This document shows, piece after piece, positions 1-28,873 of a stretch of 64,000 nt of DNA. Under the pieces are notes generated by a model that saw only the letters and a list, made by a program, of their open reading frames with translations, did not search any database and had not been told where the DNA came from. The DNA is from Caldisericia bacterium (GTDB lineage: Bacteria > Caldisericota > Caldisericia > JAAYUI01), in contig OY771555.1 of NCBI GenBank assembly GCA_963674785.1, forward strand, positions 2,112,001-2,176,000. The letters are read 5' to 3'. Positions within the stretch are counted from its first letter, which is position 1, and each line of letters begins with the position of its first letter. The position numbers and the translations under genes were made by a program.

Positions 1-1683
1 CTGCTCAGAGAGGTTTTTCCCAAGGAGACCCGAAACCCATCTTCCAAAGTCTTCGATTGGTGCAACTACACTATTTTCCCACCAGTTTGCAAACTTTGTC
101 CAAGGATTTCCAATTGAAACATCAATCTGTCCGCGTTTTTCTGAAAGCCAGTTTGACTCAAATTCATTCTTTTTCAAAATGAGAATGTCATTTTTTACCT
201 GATCTTTTACATCCTCAAACGAAAGCTTTGTGGCTGGTCTATAATCAATCTTTTTAACAATAACCCATGAATCAGATGTTCTGACTGGCTCTGAAACCTG
301 TCCATTGGTCAAATCATAAGCTTTGCTTATAACTGTGGACTCAAATGGATACATTCCCTGACCTTCATATTTAACAGCATCTTCCAAGTTTGCCCAGAAG
401 TATCCACTTGCATCAGAGGCCATCATTGATGGAATCTCTCCACCGTTATCTTTTGTAAATTGGTCGATTGAGTACCTTGATGCAGCATCAGCAAATGAAA
501 GCTTACCTGATTTGATCTGCTTGATGATATCGTCAGCTTCTGCTTTTACCTTATTCCACTCTTCCTCGGTTGCAGGTGCAGCATTTTCATCAGTTACATT
601 GCCTACTGTAAGTCTGATGATTCCAACTCTAACACCTTCCTGGAGGTCATAATTTACGCTATTATTTCTGACCTCAGTGCATTTGATGATATGGAAGCCA
701 AACTGAGTCTGAACAATATCTGAAACCTCTCCTGGTTCAAGTGTGAGAGCCATTTTTTCAAACTCTTCGACCAAACCTGCTGTTCCGGCTTCGTTGATAA
801 GTTTTCCATTCTGGATGTTATACCAACCAAGATCGCCACCACTTCCTTTTTGGTCTTCTGTACTTTCATTTGCTGCATCAGCAAATGAAATTTCACCATT
901 AACAATCCTGTCGTGGATCTCTGAAAGCTTTTCTCTTTGGGTTTTTGCTTTCTCTGGTTCATCATTGATAACATCATACGAAAGCAATATATGTGAAAGT
1001 CTCATTGCACCCTTTTGGTTATACCACTCTCTTGCTTCTTCATCTGTTGCTTCCATTCCATCAAGAGTGTCACCGATTGCCTTCTGTCTGTGAGTTTTAA
1101 ACTCAATCTCGCCTGCAAACCTAGATCGAATAAAATCTCTTAGCTGGACTTCGTTTTCATACCCTGCATCAGTCATCCAATCTTCCCAGGTTTTTTTATC
1201 TTCTTCAGTCCAGTCCTCTTCTGGTTTCTGGACAACCTGAAGCTTAACCTCAGAATCAAGTTTATCTTGAGCAACCATGTTGTAGTCATCTTCGGTTACT
1301 GCAACATTTTCTTTCTTTGCCGCTTCAATATAAATCTTTTCCTGAATCAAACGCTGAAGAGTTGTGTCTCTTTCACCTTCAAGCTGCTGCTGAAACTCTG
1401 CTGACTGGTAATCCAACTGGTCAGATGGCAACTGTGCTGCGAGAGAATCAAATGCTCGGGATTCAACTTCATTAGTTGTGATAACCTGAGAGCCAACTCT
1501 GGCAGCTACATCTCTACCATTATATGCCCAAATTCCCATAACGATTAAAACGAGTGCAATGGCCACGATTGACCAAATTGTGATCTTCCAACCTTTTGAC
1601 AAAGGTCTCTTCTCACCCCTCTGTTTTACCTCAGGGATAATTTTTAATCTTCTAAGTTTGCGAATCTTACTTTCTCGGCCCAT
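1..1683 (-). CDS. PrsA/SurA-like membrane-anchored peptidyl-prolyl isomerase (foldase), 3' end outside window
   Basis: Not in the ORF track because it runs off the window edge. Manual translation: GGAGG SD, then MGRESKIRKL..., TM segment (WKITIWSIVAIALVLIVMGIWAY), VAARVGSQVITTNEV, and parvulin motifs SHILL, GGDLGW, GEVSDIVQTQFGFHII. A second parvulin-like domain follows. Confidence 0.85.
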   Translation of the reverse strand, partial: MGRESKIRKLRRLKIIPEVKQRGEKRPLSKGWKITIWSIVAIALVLIVMGIWAYNGRDVAARVGSQVITTNEVESRAFDSLAAQLPSDQLDYQSAEFQQQLEGERDTTLQRLIQEKIYIEAAKKENVAVTEDDYNMVAQDKLDSEVKLQVVQKPEEDWTEEDKKTWEDWMTDAGYENEVQLRDFIRSRFAGEIEFKTHRQKAIGDTLDGMEATDEEAREWYNQKGAMRLSHILLSYDVINDEPEKAKTQREKLSEIHDRIVNGEISFADAANESTEDQKGSGGDLGWYNIQNGKLINEAGTAGLVEEFEKMALTLEPGEVSDIVQTQFGFHIIKCTEVRNNSVNYDLQEGVRVGIIRLTVGNVTDENAAPATEEEWNKVKAEADDIIKQIKSGKLSFADAASRYSIDQFTKDNGGEIPSMMASDASGYFWANLEDAVKYEGQGMYPFESTVISKAYDLTNGQVSEPVRTSDSWVIVKKIDYRPATKLSFEDVKDQVKNDILILKKNEFESNWLSEKRGQIDVSIGNPWTKFANWWENSVVAPIEDFGRWVSGLLGKNLSEQ

Positions 1684-1818
1684 TTTTCCTCCAATACCTA
1701 ACGGCATTCTAACTTTCTATCAAACGGTTAGTTTAGACACACATCCTAAGAGTGTAAAGAAAAACTCTAACGAGTCTGACGCAAACCCATACAAGAAAAA
1801 GGTAAAAGTAGTTCTCAA

Positions 1819-2404
<586 letters not shown>

Positions 2405-2428
2405 TAATAGAATCTATTTGTAAATCAG

Positions 2429-2462
2429 ACCCTGGCATTTTTAACAGCCAGGGTTTTTTTTT
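2429..2462 (+). terminator. Intrinsic terminator/attenuator between pyrR and pyrB
   Basis: ACCCTGGC...GCCAGGGT stem followed by a run of T's. Confidence 0.8.
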
Positions 2463-2477
2463 GAAAAAAAATGCTGA

Positions 2478-2494
2478 TTAGTCAAGGAGGCTAA
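2478..2494 (+). promoter_or_regulatory. Candidate PyrR-binding hairpin overlapping the pyrB SD
   Basis: TTAGTC-AAGGA-GGCTAA hairpin resembles the PyrR binding loop AGUC-CAGAGA-GGCU and contains AAGGAGG. Confidence 0.45.
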
Positions 2495-2499
2495 CGATT

Positions 2500-3426
2500 A
2501 TGGGTTTAAAGAGAAAACACCTGCTTGGACTCAAGGACGTAAACAAGGATGAGATAAAACTCATTCTTGATTCCGCAGAGAGTTTTAAAGAGCTACTTGG
2601 TAGAGAAATCAAGAAAGCTCCAGTTCTAAGGGGCAAGACCGTTGTAAACCTTTTCATGGAACCCTCAACCAGAACCAGAACAAGTTTCGAACTCGCCGCA
2701 AAAACTCTTTCTGCAAATGTTATCAATATCAATGCCTCAACATCAGCAGTTCAGAAAGGCGAATGCCTTAAAGACACAGTGTTAACCCTGACCGCTCTTG
2801 GCGCAGACTACATTGTTATCAGAACCTCTATGTGTGGTGCACCACATTTCATTTCGACCTTTTTTGGTGGACACGTTCTTAACGCAGGTGACGGAATCAA
2901 CGAACACCCTACACAAGCTCTTCTCGACCTCTACACAATAAGAGAAAAACTCGGAAAAATTGAAGGGAAGAAAGTTCTTATTCTCGGTGATATTAGGCAT
3001 TCTCGAGTTGCAAGATCAAATATCTTCGGTTTACAGACAATGGGTGCAACAGTTGGAGTATGTGCTCCCCCAACACTAATCCCTAAAAACATTGAGGAAC
3101 TTGGAGTAAATGTTCACTACAACCTCGACGAAGCTCTCCCAGAATATGACATCGTTAACATCCTCAGAATCCAGCTCGAAAGACAAAAACAGGGTCTTTT
3201 TTCCAGTGCTCATGAATACTTTGAGCAGTTCGGAATGACAGACGATAGGCTCGCAAGACATCCTGATCTTATGATTATGCACCCCGGTCCAATGAACAGA
3301 GGAATCGAGATTGACCCCGGTGTTGCTGAGTCACCAAACGCAACCATAACAGATCAGGTAACAAACGGAGTTGCTGTAAGAATGGCAGTTCTATATCTCC
3401 TGCTTGGAGGTGAAGCAAATGAGTAA
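2500..3426 (+). CDS. pyrB: Aspartate carbamoyltransferase catalytic subunit
   Basis: EPSTRTRTSFE, HPTQALLD and MHPGPMNRG motifs. Confidence 0.97.
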   Translation: MGLKRKHLLGLKDVNKDEIKLILDSAESFKELLGREIKKAPVLRGKTVVNLFMEPSTRTRTSFELAAKTLSANVININASTSAVQKGECLKDTVLTLTALGADYIVIRTSMCGAPHFISTFFGGHVLNAGDGINEHPTQALLDLYTIREKLGKIEGKKVLILGDIRHSRVARSNIFGLQTMGATVGVCAPPTLIPKNIEELGVNVHYNLDEALPEYDIVNILRIQLERQKQGLFSSAHEYFEQFGMTDDRLARHPDLMIMHPGPMNRGIEIDPGVAESPNATITDQVTNGVAVRMAVLYLLLGGEANE

Positions 3427-4717
3427 ATCCATAGTACTTAAGAATGGCAAAATTGTTGACGTCGAAAAGATTGAAAGCTATATCGGAGATGTACTGATTG
3501 AAGATGGTATCATTAAAAAAGTCGGTAAAGACTTATCTGCCGATGAAACAATTGATTGTACCGGAAAACTAGTCAGCCCTGGTCTTATCGACATCCATAC
3601 ACATCTGAGAGAGCCCGGGTTTGAGTACAAAGAGACCATCGCAACAGCAACAAGGGCGGCAGCCGCTGGAGGTTTTACAACCATTTTTGCAATGCCAAAT
3701 ACAAACCCTCCATGTGATAACGAAGCCACGGCTATCTACATCAGACGAAGAAACGAAACAACAGGAATAATAAACGTTGAACCGGTTGGTTGTGTTTCAA
3801 AAAACCGTGAAGGGAAACTACTTGCTGAGATGGGTGGGCTTTCAAGAGCTGGTGTAAAGATGGTCACCGACGATGGATCACCAATCTCTTCTGCTAATCT
3901 GATGCTTCTTGCTCTCAAATACTCAAAAGCATACAACCTTCTCGTTGCAAACCATTGTGAAGATACAAGTCTATCGGGAATAGGGGTATGTAGTGAAGGG
4001 TATTACTCAACCCTTTATGGACTGACACCAATACCAAAATCCGCAGAAGAAACAATGGTTGCAAGGGACTTAATCCTTGCCCATGAAGCTGATGCAAGGA
4101 TTCATATCCTTCATATCTCAACCTCCTGGTCTGTTGAATTGATTAGACAGAGCAAATCACAGGGGACAAAGGTTACGTGTGAGGTCACACCACACCACCT
4201 AACTCTAACTGACGAAATGCTTGGTTCATACAATCCTAACTGTAAAGTGAACCCACCCCTGAGATCAAAAAAAGATGTCGAGGCCTGTAGAAAAGCCCTT
4301 CTTGACGGCACAATTGACTGCATCGCAACAGACCATGCACCACATGCAAGACAAGACAAAGAGGTTGAAATTGACCTTGCACCTCCAGGAATCAGCGGAC
4401 TAGAAACTGCTCTTGGACAACTGTTTGCAGAGCTTGTCCACACTGGCATAGCACCAGCCGAATTGATTCTTTCAAAACTCACTGCAGGTCCTGCAAAGGT
4501 TATTGGTATGGATGCTCCAATAATTAAAGAAGGAGCAAAAGCCGACTTAACAATAATTGACCCCGAAAAAGAATGGACAGTTGACCCTGAGAATTTCTAC
4601 TCAAAAGGTAAAAACACCCCTCTTAAAGGTAGAAAACTTAAGGGAAAAGTATTCGCCACAATAGTCTCCGGAAGGACAATTTATCTTGATGGAAAGATTA
4701 AAGAAGAAGTTTGCTAA
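3419..4717 (+). CDS. pyrC: Dihydroorotase
   Basis: DIHTHLREPG, KVNPPLR and IATDHAPH motifs; ATG at 3419 follows a GGAGG SD. Confidence 0.95.
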   Translation: MSKSIVLKNGKIVDVEKIESYIGDVLIEDGIIKKVGKDLSADETIDCTGKLVSPGLIDIHTHLREPGFEYKETIATATRAAAAGGFTTIFAMPNTNPPCDNEATAIYIRRRNETTGIINVEPVGCVSKNREGKLLAEMGGLSRAGVKMVTDDGSPISSANLMLLALKYSKAYNLLVANHCEDTSLSGIGVCSEGYYSTLYGLTPIPKSAEETMVARDLILAHEADARIHILHISTSWSVELIRQSKSQGTKVTCEVTPHHLTLTDEMLGSYNPNCKVNPPLRSKKDVEACRKALLDGTIDCIATDHAPHARQDKEVEIDLAPPGISGLETALGQLFAELVHTGIAPAELILSKLTAGPAKVIGMDAPIIKEGAKADLTIIDPEKEWTVDPENFYSKGKNTPLKGRKLKGKVFATIVSGRTIYLDGKIKEEVC

Positions 4718-25747: not shown

Positions 25748-26154
25748 TGAAAGTTATTCTTAAAAATAAACGTTGCATGTGACCAGCCTGTGCCTTACAG
25801 GTAGAGGAATCGGTTCGATTCTTAAATGGTGTTGAGAAGGTGGAAAAGCTCCTTTTTGGAGCATTTGAAATTGCTTTTGATGATCAAGCAGTTAAGGTTT
25901 CTGAACTTGAAAGTCGAATGTCAATCGCAGGATTTCCTCCGGAGGATGAAATGAGAGTAGAATTATCAGTTCCTGGAATTATGTGTGAAGTTTGTGCTGG
26001 AAAAGTCAAAGATAATCTATCAGTACTTTCAGGTATTGAAACAGTCAATATAAACATAAAAAATAAAACTGTAGCAGTCGATTTCGACAAATCAAAATTG
26101 ACTGTTGACGATATCAAAAATAAACTCTCAGAGATTGGTTATCCAGCAGATTAA
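25747..26154 (+). CDS. Two-domain heavy-metal-associated (CopZ-like) protein, putative selenoprotein (UxxC + CxxC)
   Basis: ATG 25747 overlaps the upstream TAA. Reads MKVILKNKRCM-UGA-PACALQVEESVRFLNGV, in frame with the tracked ORF that contains GIMCEVC. Confidence 0.8.
25805..25823 (+). promoter_or_regulatory. Candidate bacterial SECIS hairpin
   Basis: AGGAATCG-GTT-CGATTCTT; the apical loop starts with G, 30 nt after the in-frame UGA. Confidence 0.55.
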
Positions 26155-27500
26155 CTAGAGTAACTGGTTACCTTTTGGGCACCAATTGAATATGTGTGGT
26201 CAACATATAATTTAACGAACTTTTTTGTGTCTGATATTGTCCTAAAACATGACCTTCCAGACATAGTGCTATTTTGATGAAGTGCTTGAGCAACACATCC
26301 GCCCCCACAAATTGGGAGGAGAACACAATTTTTTTCTGCGCATTCAAGGATTTTTTGTTTTCCTCCTGCCAACCAATTTTTCTCTTTTTTGGTATCAAAG
26401 AATGATTTGCCGTTTATATTTCCTACGCAAAAAGTCTGGTTATTGATATGCTCCCAACAATGATTTATCTCACCTTTTGGCCCAATTGCAAAAAACCCTT
26501 TTGAGTATGCCCCACACAGCATTGGAGCAATCAAGTACTTGAAATAACTTCTTTTATCTCCACCACAGAATCCATTTTCAACAATCTTTTGCGTCCACTG
26601 ACCAATCTCTGAAAAATACTTTTTACTTGATATACAATCAACCTCATACTTCTCGGAGCTCTCTGTCATTTTGGTTATTGGATAGGTATAAACAGATAGA
26701 TTCCTGAGATTTGATAAACCTTCTTTTTTCAAATCGTCCAGTAACTCATCAATTGAGCCTTCATTTTCTGAATCAACATTAATTCTTATTTCTATGTTTT
26801 TGATTCCAATATCTACAGCCTTTTTTATCCCCGTTATTACATCTGAGTATGATGCAGATCCATCTGAATATGGTCTCTCCTTGTTATGAAATCTTTTTGC
26901 TCCATGCAAGGTAACTTGCAATCGATTTAAACAAATTTCAGAATGTAGTCTTTCAAGTTCCTTTTCAATAAGAGATCCATTTGAAATTATTCCCCAATAC
27001 TGATTGATATCTGGAAAAGCATTATCAATGAATTTCTTTAAATCTATGAAATATTCAGGATACATTAGTGGTTCACCACCATAGCAATTGATGGTAATCT
27101 TCTTGACATCCAACCTAACAACTTGATCTTTAATGAAATCCTTGAGCCTATTAAAGGACTCTTGACTTATTGGTTCAATGTTGGTCCGACTTTCATAACA
27201 ATATGGGCAGCCAAAATTACAATCCATTGATAGCGCAAAAACAATATCAAGTGTCCCGGGGTTTTCAAATCTATTCAAAAATCTCTCAACAACCCATTTT
27301 TTTTCATCAAAACCGTCATCAACAAGAAAACCGGTCTTTTTTAAGTCAGCCAAAATATTTAAGTTCGAATGAAATCGATCTTCTTCAATAGCCCTAACAA
27401 CTTCATTCGATAAAATAATCACAGAGCCAGAAAGTGTTGAAAAAAGAATCATATTCTCATTATTATATTTGACCTTCAATAAGTAATTTGTAAATCTCAT
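26151..27500 (-). CDS. Radical SAM/SPASM peptide maturase with N-terminal RRE-like region
   Basis: CNFGCPYC and YGGEP motifs; SPASM C-x13-G-x4-C...CxxxxC-x5-C-x3-C...C; SD GGAGGAG before ATG 27500. Confidence 0.9.
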   Translation of the reverse strand: MRFTNYLLKVKYNNENMILFSTLSGSVIILSNEVVRAIEEDRFHSNLNILADLKKTGFLVDDGFDEKKWVVERFLNRFENPGTLDIVFALSMDCNFGCPYCYESRTNIEPISQESFNRLKDFIKDQVVRLDVKKITINCYGGEPLMYPEYFIDLKKFIDNAFPDINQYWGIISNGSLIEKELERLHSEICLNRLQVTLHGAKRFHNKERPYSDGSASYSDVITGIKKAVDIGIKNIEIRINVDSENEGSIDELLDDLKKEGLSNLRNLSVYTYPITKMTESSEKYEVDCISSKKYFSEIGQWTQKIVENGFCGGDKRSYFKYLIAPMLCGAYSKGFFAIGPKGEINHCWEHINNQTFCVGNINGKSFFDTKKEKNWLAGGKQKILECAEKNCVLLPICGGGCVAQALHQNSTMSGRSCFRTISDTKKFVKLYVDHTYSIGAQKVTSYSS

Positions 27501-27517
27501 TGCTCCTCCACTAAAAT

Positions 27518-27547
27518 ACTGGGGTGGAAACATGTTTCCACCCCAGT
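27518..27547. terminator. Perfect 30-bp palindrome between precursor and maturase (terminator/RNA-stabilising hairpin)
   Basis: ACTGGGGTGGAAACATGTTTCCACCCCAGT, followed by ATTTT on the minus strand. Confidence 0.75.
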
Positions 27548-27560
27548 CCCCAACATTAAC

Positions 27561-27752
27561 CTACTCCATCGTGCTACCATTTTGCCAGCATCTGTAGTTC
27601 GGGCATCCACATAGCTCCATCTGATTTGGATCAAAAACCTGTTGATCCATCCAAACTACTCTAAGCTCCGGAATCAACTCCATTATCTCTGGATCCACCT
27701 TTGACTGATCCAAAGACACCTTAATTGAGTCTGGGTTGTGTTCGTATGGCAT
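27561..27752 (-). CDS. Putative RiPP precursor peptide (63 aa; acidic leader, C-terminal CGCPNYRCWQNG core)
   Basis: Strong SD AGGAGG; co-oriented and directly upstream of the rSAM/SPASM gene; all three Cys are clustered at the C-terminus. Confidence 0.75.
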   Translation of the reverse strand: MPYEHNPDSIKVSLDQSKVDPEIMELIPELRVVWMDQQVFDPNQMELCGCPNYRCWQNGSTME

Positions 27753-27889
27753 AACATTACCTCCTCTCTCACCTGATAAAACAACAATATCACGGAGGCA
27801 AGTTTACAAAAAATAATTTTAATTTATGGACAGATTAATTTTGTCGATTCTTTTATATTTGTAGCATCATCAACAGGATCTTCAAAAAT

Positions 27890-28873
27890 CTATTTAATTA
27901 GATTAAAAACCAACAACATCAATCCACCAAATACGGCTGATGCAAACCAGAACCAGAACACAATTTTTTTCTCACTCCATCCAAGAAGCTCAAAGTGATG
28001 GTGGATTGGTGTCATCAAAAACACTCTTTTCCCTGTTCCGGTTTTTCTTTTTGTGTATTTGAAATAGCTCGTTTGAATCATAGTTGAGAGCGCCTCAAAG
28101 AAGAAAACAAATCCGCCAATCAAAAATAACCAGATATGACCGGAATAGATTGCTGTTATTGCAAGCACTCCACCAAGTGCATTTGACCCAGTATTGCCCA
28201 TCCAAACCTTTGCAGGATGAAAATTAAAAACCAGAAATCCGACAGTTGCACCAATCAGAGCCAAGGGCAAAATTGCCAAACCTTTATCAACGATAAAAAG
28301 CATTGGAATGTATGAAATCAGAGTTATCGTGTTTGCACCTCCTGCCAACCCATCAAGACCATCAGCAAGATTAACTGCATTAACTATCCCAATAATAGCA
28401 ACAACATATACCATCGCTGAAATTGATTCTGGTGTTCCAGCACCAAAAACAGGCGTCAAAATCTGGTAATGAATTAAAATGAATGGGAATGTAATAAGAA
28501 GCTGAAGGGCGATTGTCCATCTTCCCGGTAAACCCTGTGGTGAATTTGTGAAGATTTTTATGGCATCGTCAATGAAACCAATGAGTCCAAATCCCCACAT
28601 CGCATAAAGTCCCCACATCAAATAATGAGGAGCAAAACCAGTCATTAGGTCTGTAAAACGAGAGAAAATAAGGGCGGAGGCAGTAGCAGCAATCATAAAA
28701 ATAAACCCGCCCATGCAAGGTGTGCCAGCTTTTTTTTGATGACGTTCAGGTGATTCTGCACGAACTTTTTGACCAGTGCCAAGTGTTTTTAATAAAAGAA
28801 TTATTGGATACCCGATGACTAGACTGATGGCAAATGCCGATCCTGTCAGCAAAAAGATATTATTCATAATCAC
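27890..28873 (-). CDS. mraY: Phospho-N-acetylmuramoyl-pentapeptide transferase
   Basis: HQKKAGTPCMGG, FIDD, NAVNLADGLDGL and MTPIHHHFEL motifs. Confidence 0.9.
   Translation of the reverse strand: MIMNNIFLLTGSAFAISLVIGYPIILLLKTLGTGQKVRAESPERHQKKAGTPCMGGFIFMIAATASALIFSRFTDLMTGFAPHYLMWGLYAMWGFGLIGFIDDAIKIFTNSPQGLPGRWTIALQLLITFPFILIHYQILTPVFGAGTPESISAMVYVVAIIGIVNAVNLADGLDGLAGGANTITLISYIPMLFIVDKGLAILPLALIGATVGFLVFNFHPAKVWMGNTGSNALGGVLAITAIYSGHIWLFLIGGFVFFFEALSTMIQTSYFKYTKRKTGTGKRVFLMTPIHHHFELLGWSEKKIVFWFWFASAVFGGLMLLVFNLIK

Follow-up and report, generated by a model that had tools for sequence, protein, structure and literature searches.

Orphan pairs of a Cys-rich peptide and a radical S-adenosylmethionine (rSAM) enzyme with a SPASM domain are common. 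SCIFF pairs are minimal and their role is unclear, and the PapB/freyrasin and NxxcB/NxxC systems make short-range links from Cys to side chains within small motifs. Leader-bound structures exist for the enzymes CteB, SuiB and ChlB, and the CefB, TIGR04463, Clo7bot and geopeptide systems have, as far as can be told, been defined bioinformatically and have no solved product. PMC10288494 touches briefly on the chemistry of PapB and NxxcB. Here we analyse a pair of this kind from Caldisericota, a poorly studied and mostly uncultured phylum. It is encoded on the minus strand of a 64,000-nt stretch of a Caldisericia genome (assembly GCA_963674785.1, contig OY771555.1, positions 2,112,001 to 2,176,000), hereafter the window, to which positions refer unless a locus is named. 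The pair consists of a 63-amino-acid (aa) precursor peptide and a 449-aa rSAM/SPASM maturase, and our results show that it is a genuine precursor-maturase module. We think it rather probable that it forms a self-contained two-gene system for a peptide synthesized ribosomally and modified post-translationally (RiPP), of an uncharacterised Cys-thioether family so far found in one Caldisericota family.

The SCIFF ranthipeptide system CteB/CteA of Clostridia (structures 5WGG and 5WHY; family TIGR03974) offers a parallel in build, since its enzyme, like the maturase as we model it, joins an N-terminal RiPP recognition element (RRE), a radical SAM barrel and a SPASM domain with seven Cys. The two systems are also alike in layout, each having two genes, a short Cys-bearing precursor, no linked protease or exporter, and a core that is conserved within the lineage.

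Organization of the locus

The two genes occupy about 1.6-1.7 kb and comprise the following features, listed in the direction of transcription.

27760..27764, minus strand: Shine-Dalgarno sequence GGAGG, 7 nt before the precursor ATG, read from the sequence
27561..27752, minus strand: precursor peptide gene, 63 aa, from the reading of the open reading frame (ORF); orthologs 71% and 56% identical with a conserved core
Within 27561..27752, minus strand: precursor leader, about residues 1-44, with conserved M1, Y3, S9, M24, V32, W34 and D36
Within 27561..27752, minus strand: precursor core, about residues 45-63, MELCGCPNYRCWQNGSTME, with Cys48, Cys50 and Cys55
27518..27547, minus strand: intergenic hairpin with a 13-bp stem and a 4-nt loop, then AUUUUAG (fold energy, shuffles)
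27503..27509, minus strand: Shine-Dalgarno sequence GGAGGAG before the 449-aa maturase start, read from the sequence
26151..27500, minus strand: radical SAM/SPASM peptide maturase, 449 aa (PF04055, NCBIfam, AlphaFold 2, Foldseek)
27261..27500, minus strand: N-terminal RRE-like domain, aa 1-80, predicted leader-binding site (beta3-alpha3 topology, co-fold contacts)
27198..27221, minus strand: CxxxCxxC radical SAM cluster motif, C94/C98/C101 (invariant in 61/61 homologs)
26247..26516, minus strand: SPASM domain with seven invariant Cys, aa 329-418 (homolog alignment)

The full precursor, translated from 27561-27752, reads MPYEHNPDSIKVSLDQSKVDPEIMELIPELRVVWMDQQVFDPNQMELCGCPNYRCWQNGSTME. It is the sequence quoted in the preliminary description of this DNA, which had also pointed to the strong Shine-Dalgarno sequence, to the palindrome behind the ORF and to a 449-aa rSAM enzyme with CxxxCxxC and a seven-Cys SPASM domain, and all of these were borne out. 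For the maturase, a start at the ATG at 27533, giving 460 aa, was rejected in favour of 27500 (N-terminus MRFTNY...), with which both the GGAGGAG sequence and the N-termini of homologs agree. The same description had called the pair visibly AT-rich. The bias is real but modest, with a GC content of 35.9% against a window mean of 40.0% (s.d. 1.8%), which places the pair in the lowest 1.9% of 1602-bp segments.

The intergenic hairpin begins 13 bases past the precursor stop codon and its stem is perfect. Its minimum free energy is -24.2 kcal/mol (z = -3.0), equal folding being found in 2/200 shuffles, and it is the only terminator-like site within 26000-28000. Hairpins of unrelated sequence lie at the same intergenic position in the related loci L006 (z -4.0) and L082 (z -3.8, then a U tract), that is, a strong hairpin separates precursor and maturase in 3/3 loci tested. 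Its presence is kept and its sequence is not, which fits a structural role. Partial-termination or stabilising elements of such a type are common in RiPP operons, and the hairpin probably acts as a leaky terminator or stabilises the transcript and in this way adjusts the levels of precursor and enzyme, leaving the precursor in excess.

Conservation and distribution of the precursor

The precursor had been said to belong to no recognised family. Indeed, it has no Pfam or NCBIfam match (NCBIfam E up to 1), the NCBIfam peptide models match none of the family's precursors even at E up to 10, and the enzyme scores far below every NCBIfam cut-off. A word-indexed search found a peptide 71% identical to it (P0122), and the closest enzyme homolog, P0001, is 60% identical; at locus L006, the peptide gene lies directly upstream of the P0001 enzyme gene. 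Peptides from Caldisericales/Caldisericota metagenome-assembled genomes read MPYQHNINSIKVSVESGLVNTEIMEPISGLSVVWIDQQNYNPATMEVC[SA]CPNYRCWTNNAMV, and the core ME[LV]CxCPNYRCWxN is retained down to 37% enzyme identity, where CPNYRCW is still identical. When the window was compared with L006, the 23 core codons comprised 10 identical, 11 synonymous and 2 non-synonymous ones, and the 40 leader codons 13, 11 and 16, respectively. This codon pattern, together with the conservation, shows that the ORF is translated and that the C-terminus is its most constrained part.

Enzyme orthologs (E<1e-90) are present in the source genome G000, in G068 from the same genus, and in G060, G061 and G062 from the genus g2, and the peptide adjoins each of them. 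The precursor is hence present at 5/5 orthologous loci, in two genera of one Caldisericota family, and at a paralog locus described below. The preliminary description had proposed a minimal pair of a precursor and an RRE-bearing rSAM/SPASM enzyme, to be abandoned if homologs lacked the upstream peptide, and this conservation upholds it. When 93 genomes of the phylum were scanned in six frames with the profile, the leader was detected in 8, all of them in family f1 (7/10 others and G000). Over the small ORFs of 80 loci from genome contigs, the leader profile matched L006, L007 and L082 alone, whose enzymes are at least 36% identical, and 0/77 of the others. Among the metagenome loci listed it matched 0/80, with enzymes all at 32% identity or less, and no orthologs appeared among the listed matches of the metagenome scan with the enzyme alignment, all likewise at 32% identity or less. 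In total, 0/157 loci with distant rSAM enzymes carry the leader. A profile search of 1.84 billion representative proteins returned only 13 relatives at E<=1e-3.

The pair is absent from 2/3 other genomes of the same genus (G066 and G067) and from 1/4 in genus g2 (G059). The flanking gene order is intact in G066 and G067 (each at least 95% complete), where the HMA-domain gene that flanks the maturase directly abuts the MraY-like gene on the other side, with gaps of ~70 and ~24 bp. The syntenic loci without the pair, compared with 25840-28873 of the window, are:

L119: G066, C1:400500-408500
L120: G067, C7:47000-55000

As two genes missing together at intact synteny, precursor and maturase were gained or lost together. 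The presence/absence polymorphism is clean, a 1.7-kb cassette being found in the window and L006 and missing in L119 and L120. The lower GC content of the pair raised the question of horizontal transfer, but no flanking repeats or mobility genes were noticed near the pair or the junctions, where no systematic search was made for them. In genus g2, the pair stands in an unrelated gene context.

Domains and family placement of the maturase

In Pfam, the maturase matches Radical_SAM (PF04055, E 1.3e-17, 64.9 bits against a cut-off of 29.5) and also Fer4_12; the scan gave no PqqD match and a weak one to HTH_56 (17.8 bits). The SPASM model TIGR04085 scores 52.8 bits on the paralog enzyme (cut-off 27). 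We aligned the enzyme with 60 homologs and built a tree of the 61 sequences. C94, C98 and C101 and the SPASM residues C329, C348, C387, C392, C398, C402 and C418 are invariant in 61/61, and an eighth Cys, C289, is invariant solely within the five-member Caldisericota clade. In an AlphaFold 2 model (mean predicted local distance difference test (pLDDT) 94, predicted template modelling score 0.91), residues 7-79 form three strands followed by three helices (beta-beta-beta-alpha-alpha-alpha) with pLDDT >90. This is the RRE topology, and the model thus supports the RRE-like region of about 80 aa that had been proposed for the N-terminus. The four marks of an RRE-dependent rSAM/SPASM maturase are therefore found together: the RRE (from the model), the radical SAM motif, the SPASM domain and an adjacent, co-conserved precursor.

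Family models were taken from NCBIfam release 20, with its curated cut-offs, and from Pfam. The following NCBIfam scores were obtained for the maturase, none of which reaches its cut-off.

CefB (NF038107): 205.6 bits, cut-off 600
TIGR04463: 183.8 bits, cut-off 525
Clo7bot (TIGR04334): 159 bits, cut-off 600
Geopeptide (TIGR04280): 154 bits, cut-off 400
FlmE/OhkG: 140 bits, cut-off 500
PapB (NF047865): 92.2 bits, cut-off 340
ScfB (TIGR03974): 53.6 bits, cut-off 425
YhhB (cyclophane): 49 bits, cut-off 445

The CefB model gives 176.7 bits on the paralog and 190 bits on P0001. The cyclophane maturases FxsB, GrrM and AmcB score below YhhB or are unlisted for the window enzyme (cut-offs for the four models 310-445). 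By sequence the nearest entry in the PDB is CteB (5WGG, E 1.6e-23), and by fold it is again CteB (Foldseek, 5WHY/5WGG, E about 1e-18, full-length template modelling (TM) score 0.67-0.71), followed by TigE, anSME, ChlB and SuiB. In the tree, the five Caldisericota sequences are monophyletic (support 0.999) on a stem of 0.72 substitutions/site, and within them the paralog is the outgroup to the window enzyme and the g2 orthologs. When the 61 homologs were scanned at E<=1e-100, 10 had a named NCBIfam family (Clo7bot 6, geopeptide 2, TIGR04463 2) and 51 had none. The maturase is thus placed within the broad clade of rSAM/SPASM maturases of Cys-rich peptides by its family models (CefB, TIGR04463, Clo7bot, geopeptide and PapB) and by structure (CteB).

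Predicted binding of the leader

To model the complex, the full enzyme (61-row alignment) and the full precursor (8-row alignment) were co-folded in three runs. The score was 0.65 (runs 0.63-0.69) and that of the best control 0.00; in calibration, the mark used for such scores was reached by 58/80 solved complexes and by 2/110 mismatched pairs. At least 65% of contacts recur between runs, and the peptide's own pLDDT is ~43. The confident interface places leader residues 28-40 (PELRVVWMDQQVF) on enzyme residues 18-34, 49-57 and 69, that is, on strand beta3 and the helices of the RRE, and on the tail at 441-448. Core residue Cys55 lies near enzyme residues 321/329 in the co-fold, C329 being a SPASM Cys. 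As a model, the co-fold supports binding of the leader by the RRE.

The co-fold and the distribution both bear on another explanation, in which the small ORF arose by chance or is a non-substrate neighbour and the rSAM enzyme acts on another target. We found nothing that supports it beyond the ORF having no Pfam or NCBIfam match. The ORF stands at all five orthologous loci, shows a synonymous excess in its core, is lost along with the enzyme and has a strong Shine-Dalgarno sequence, and the co-fold separates it from the controls (0.65 vs 0.00). We therefore regard this explanation as extremely improbable.

A paralog locus and related precursors

A second locus, L002 (G000, C1:946463-950791), lies outside the window. 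Its features, in coordinates of the locus, are:

2847-3050, minus strand: first of four tandem precursor genes, 67-69 aa, which precede the paralog rSAM gene
3062-3265, minus strand: second precursor gene
3275-3484, minus strand: third precursor gene
3496-3702, minus strand: fourth precursor gene
1468-2832, minus strand: paralog rSAM enzyme, 454 aa, 32% identical to the window enzyme (E 1.8e-83)

Among the 93 genomes of the phylum, the source genome alone has this four-precursor array. The leaders of the paralog precursors follow the pattern M-x-Y-x-[HK]-[ND]...S...M...V-x-W-x-D, as does that of the window precursor, and M1, Y3, S9, M24, V32, W34 and D36 are invariant in 8/8 aligned precursors. 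The cores, on the other hand, are diversified, with a Cys every fifth residue (C-x4-C-x4-C): ...SLCDIYCQATYCCP..., ...TCCQPLCAQTFCEG..., ...SCVATYCHSTYCSG... and ...GYCQSNFCNIGFCDS.... Literal C-x4-C-x4-C cores also occur in the related precursors P0139, P0141 and P0142. Metagenomic relatives bridge both subtypes: P0139 joins a start of the window type, ELCGC, to every-fifth repeats (AKTFC-PGTYC), and P0147 has a divergent leader, yet retains C-x4-C with YRCWSNGS. Of the 50 core Cys in 15 distinct precursors, 20 have Cys at position +5, 20 have Thr or Asn at +3 and 17 have Tyr or Phe at -1. The only core feature common to both subtypes is Cys, and the C55 column is invariant in 8/8 aligned precursors.

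Cys-rich precursors likewise flank enzymes related more distantly to the maturase (25-30% identity), for instance at L010, L011, L021, L022, L025 and L036. These loci and L048 come from Paraclostridium/Clostridium, with enzymes 27-30% identical, and hold arrays of 3-5 short Cys-rich precursors that begin MKYIIKP or MKFIKKP. The arrays may be of the Clo7bot type, since six of the 61 homologs scanned against NCBIfam, a set distinct from these loci, match the Clo7bot model; none of their products is known to us to have been characterised. Caldisericota family f1 also has other rSAM/SPASM paralogs, 25-30% identical (G068:C4:29975-31210, G068:C14:25332-26564, G067:C52:5750-7057, G059:C33:153534-154586 and others), and these may mark additional RiPP loci.

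A domain resembling the leader was also observed in a sister genus, g3, which has no orthologous maturase. There, proteins of 228-400 aa carry two tandem copies of it at their N-terminus and are encoded by the following genes.

L091:943-1647, minus strand: tandem-leader-domain gene in G064
L093:1501-2187, plus strand: tandem-leader-domain gene in G063
Also in G065, and as proteins P0143 (228 aa) and P0144 (400 aa)

Their C-terminal portions form a repetitive beta-solenoid that matches Bactofilin weakly (E 0.011, below the cut-off), and the gene adjoins glutamine synthetase. This distribution suggests kinship between the RiPP leader and an autonomous protein domain.

Proposed mechanism and probable chemistry of the links

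We propose the following course of events. The 63-aa precursor would be translated from its strong ribosome-binding site, and the hairpin would let part of the transcripts pass into the maturase gene. In the modelled complex, the leader strand P28-F40, with V32-V33-W34-M35-D36 at its centre, would bind the RRE by adding to strand beta3, the C-terminal tail of the enzyme serving as a clamp. The core would be threaded into the radical SAM barrel, where the 5'-deoxyadenosyl radical and two auxiliary SPASM clusters would link C48, C50 and C55 to nearby carbons. These links would most likely be thioethers, either ranthipeptide-like, with the Cys sulfur joined to a beta or gamma carbon of another residue, or sactipeptide-like, with an alpha carbon as acceptor, and the result would be a small, compact polycyclic peptide built about the invariant YRCWxN. 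Removal of the leader and export, if they occur, would be left to unlinked functions as with SCIFF, or the product would be intracellular.

Thioethers and cyclophanes had both been considered in the preliminary description, and the comparative sequence data lean towards Cys thioethers. This reading is preferred because the best family models are those of enzymes partnered with Cys-rich peptides, the precursor arrays of relatives are Cys-rich, the nearest structure is that of CteB, a thioether synthase, and Cys is common to both subtypes of core.

A number of points weigh against this proposal. Sactisynthases are divergent in sequence and paraphyletic with rSAM enzymes that form C-O and C-C bonds, according to PMC10288494, and a likeness to CteB or PapB therefore does not settle which reaction takes place. 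An aromatic cross-link would also be compatible with the invariant Y, W and N of YRCWxN, and since divergent P0147 has Ser in place of the Asn in PNYRC, a strict NxxC thioether is not conserved. The co-fold score may in part reflect memory of the solved CteB-CteA and SuiB-SuiA complexes; besides, the pLDDT of the peptide is low (~43) and the co-fold alignments are small. Finally, Peptidase_C39, the one protease family searched for genome-wide, is absent from the 92%-complete genome and neither locus has an exporter or protease next to it, which leaves a secreted product unsupported.

Some of these points speak for a different chemistry, in which the maturase forms C-C links (cyclophane or triceptide-like) or other aromatic links at Y-R-C/W-x-N, alone or together with thioethers, the Cys serving as disulfides or as cluster or metal ligands. 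W-x-N fits the omega-x-x motif of three-residue cyclophanes. The Y, R, W and N of YRCWxN are present in 5/5 distinct cores of the subtype (window, L006, L082, L007 and P0147), an aromatic residue (Y/F) precedes a core Cys in 17/50 cases in the paralog-type cores, and the top fold matches include a cyclophane synthase, ChlB (9GM3, TM 0.62/0.73). Overall similarity is no reliable predictor of the reaction type of rSAM enzymes, according to PMC10288494. Against such links, the cyclophane models score low (YhhB 49 bits) beside those of the Cys-rich-peptide maturases (184-206 bits) and PapB (92), Cys alone among core residue types is shared by both subtypes, with C55 invariant in 8/8 precursors, and the precursors of relatives are rich in Cys rather than in aromatic residues. 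On this balance we consider aromatic chemistry unlikely, and Cys thioethers remain the preferred assignment.

A composite scheme can also be drawn, in which C-x4-Y-R-C-W-x-N would carry an undescribed pattern of links (for example thioether plus aromatic), the leader would be a pre-existing autonomous domain recruited for recognition by the RRE, and the product would be intracellular. Nif11 and NHLP leaders provide a precedent for a leader recruited from an existing protein domain. As a whole, we judge this scheme to be decidedly unlikely.

Genomic neighbourhood and role of the product

By Pfam, the neighbours on the enzyme side are an HMA-domain protein, an ECF S-component, a double-zinc-ribbon protein, a polysaccharide pyruvyl transferase and a WecG-type transferase, and those on the other side are a glycosyltransferase of family 4 (MraY-like), an M18 aminopeptidase and a dUTPase. 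No exporter or transporter, dedicated protease or immunity gene is adjacent to the pair, exactly as had been described. At the paralog locus there is no protease or transporter either, and the neighbours are a hybrid histidine kinase and lipoproteins. The HMA gene (25840-26154, plus strand) is convergent with the maturase gene and overlaps its stop region by 4 nt (26151-26154), which leaves no room for a terminator between the two. It was considered as a member of the system and rejected, since it stays put in congeners without the pair. The adjacent M18 aminopeptidase was rejected too, being part of the syntenic block both in L006, with the pair, and in L119/L120, without it.

This setting is relevant to the possibility that the modified peptide works within the cell, for instance in redox reactions or metal binding, in signalling or as the precursor of a cofactor, in line with proposals for SCIFF, PQQ and mycofactocin. 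Neither locus has an exporter, protease or immunity gene and the genome is without a C39 peptidase; the leader is acidic and has no hydrophobic stretch resembling a signal peptide; the core is strongly conserved across two genera, unlike the hypervariable cores of bacteriocins; and the convergent neighbour is an HMA metal-binding gene. That gene, however, remains where the pair is missing and is thus not linked to it. The pair is moreover dispensable (missing in G066, G067 and G059), for which an accessory trait is a better fit than a cofactor, and the four diversified cores of the paralog locus resemble a natural-product array. We hold the intracellular role to be possible, if somewhat unlikely. 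It concerns role and not chemistry, and is compatible with thioether formation. Dispensability points to an accessory natural product, as does the diversity of cores in the paralog array, and the missing export and protease genes, with the conserved core, recall by analogy SCIFF-like intracellular or signalling peptides.

Comparison with known systems

Our searches of the literature found no work linking Caldisericota to RiPPs or dealing with this pair, and no relevant publications on CefB/Cys-every-fifth, TIGR04463, NF038107, or OhkG/FlmE with radical SAM. The pair and its four-precursor paralog make a compact and experimentally tractable RiPP family, with a short constrained core and a clear leader motif. 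They are a convenient case for learning which cross-links are made by the large unnamed branch of rSAM/SPASM enzymes that accounts for 51/61 of the nearest homologs. Furthermore, a small view on the origin and movement of such modules is opened by the presence/absence polymorphism and by the larger proteins that reuse the leader domain.

Set beside CteB, which it resembles in fold and layout, the maturase has only 17-20% identity in structural alignment and 53.6/425 bits with the ScfB model. The window precursor differs from SCIFF in its length of 63 aa, its three core Cys, its unrelated leader and its want of any NCBIfam match, and it belongs to a Caldisericota family rather than to Clostridia. 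CefB/CefA, TIGR04463, Clo7bot and geopeptide score best on the window enzyme as well as on its ortholog and on the paralog, and all four are defined as partners of Cys-rich peptides. The likeness to the 'Cys-every-fifth' peptides of CefB extends to the C-x4-C-x4-C cores of the paralog locus, P0139, P0141 and P0142. In contrast to these four systems, the maturase scores about a third of their cut-offs, and the Caldisericota enzymes form a clade of their own on a long stem.

Among maturases that have been studied experimentally, PapB of freyrasin gives the best-scoring model, with 92 bits on the window enzyme and 115-127 bits on relatives. The window core, which holds N-Y-R-C (the NxxC pattern) and C-W-Q-N, resembles the NxxC ranthipeptides. 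It differs from both systems in that the PapB cut-off is missed (92/340), no CxxxD/E is repeated, Asn is replaced by Ser in P0147, and the leaders are unrelated. The pair had been put forward as possibly a new class. The family is indeed unnamed, but it sits inside the clade of rSAM/SPASM enzymes for Cys-rich peptides, and the pair is hence a rare, lineage-restricted new family of a well-known kind of system, not a new category.

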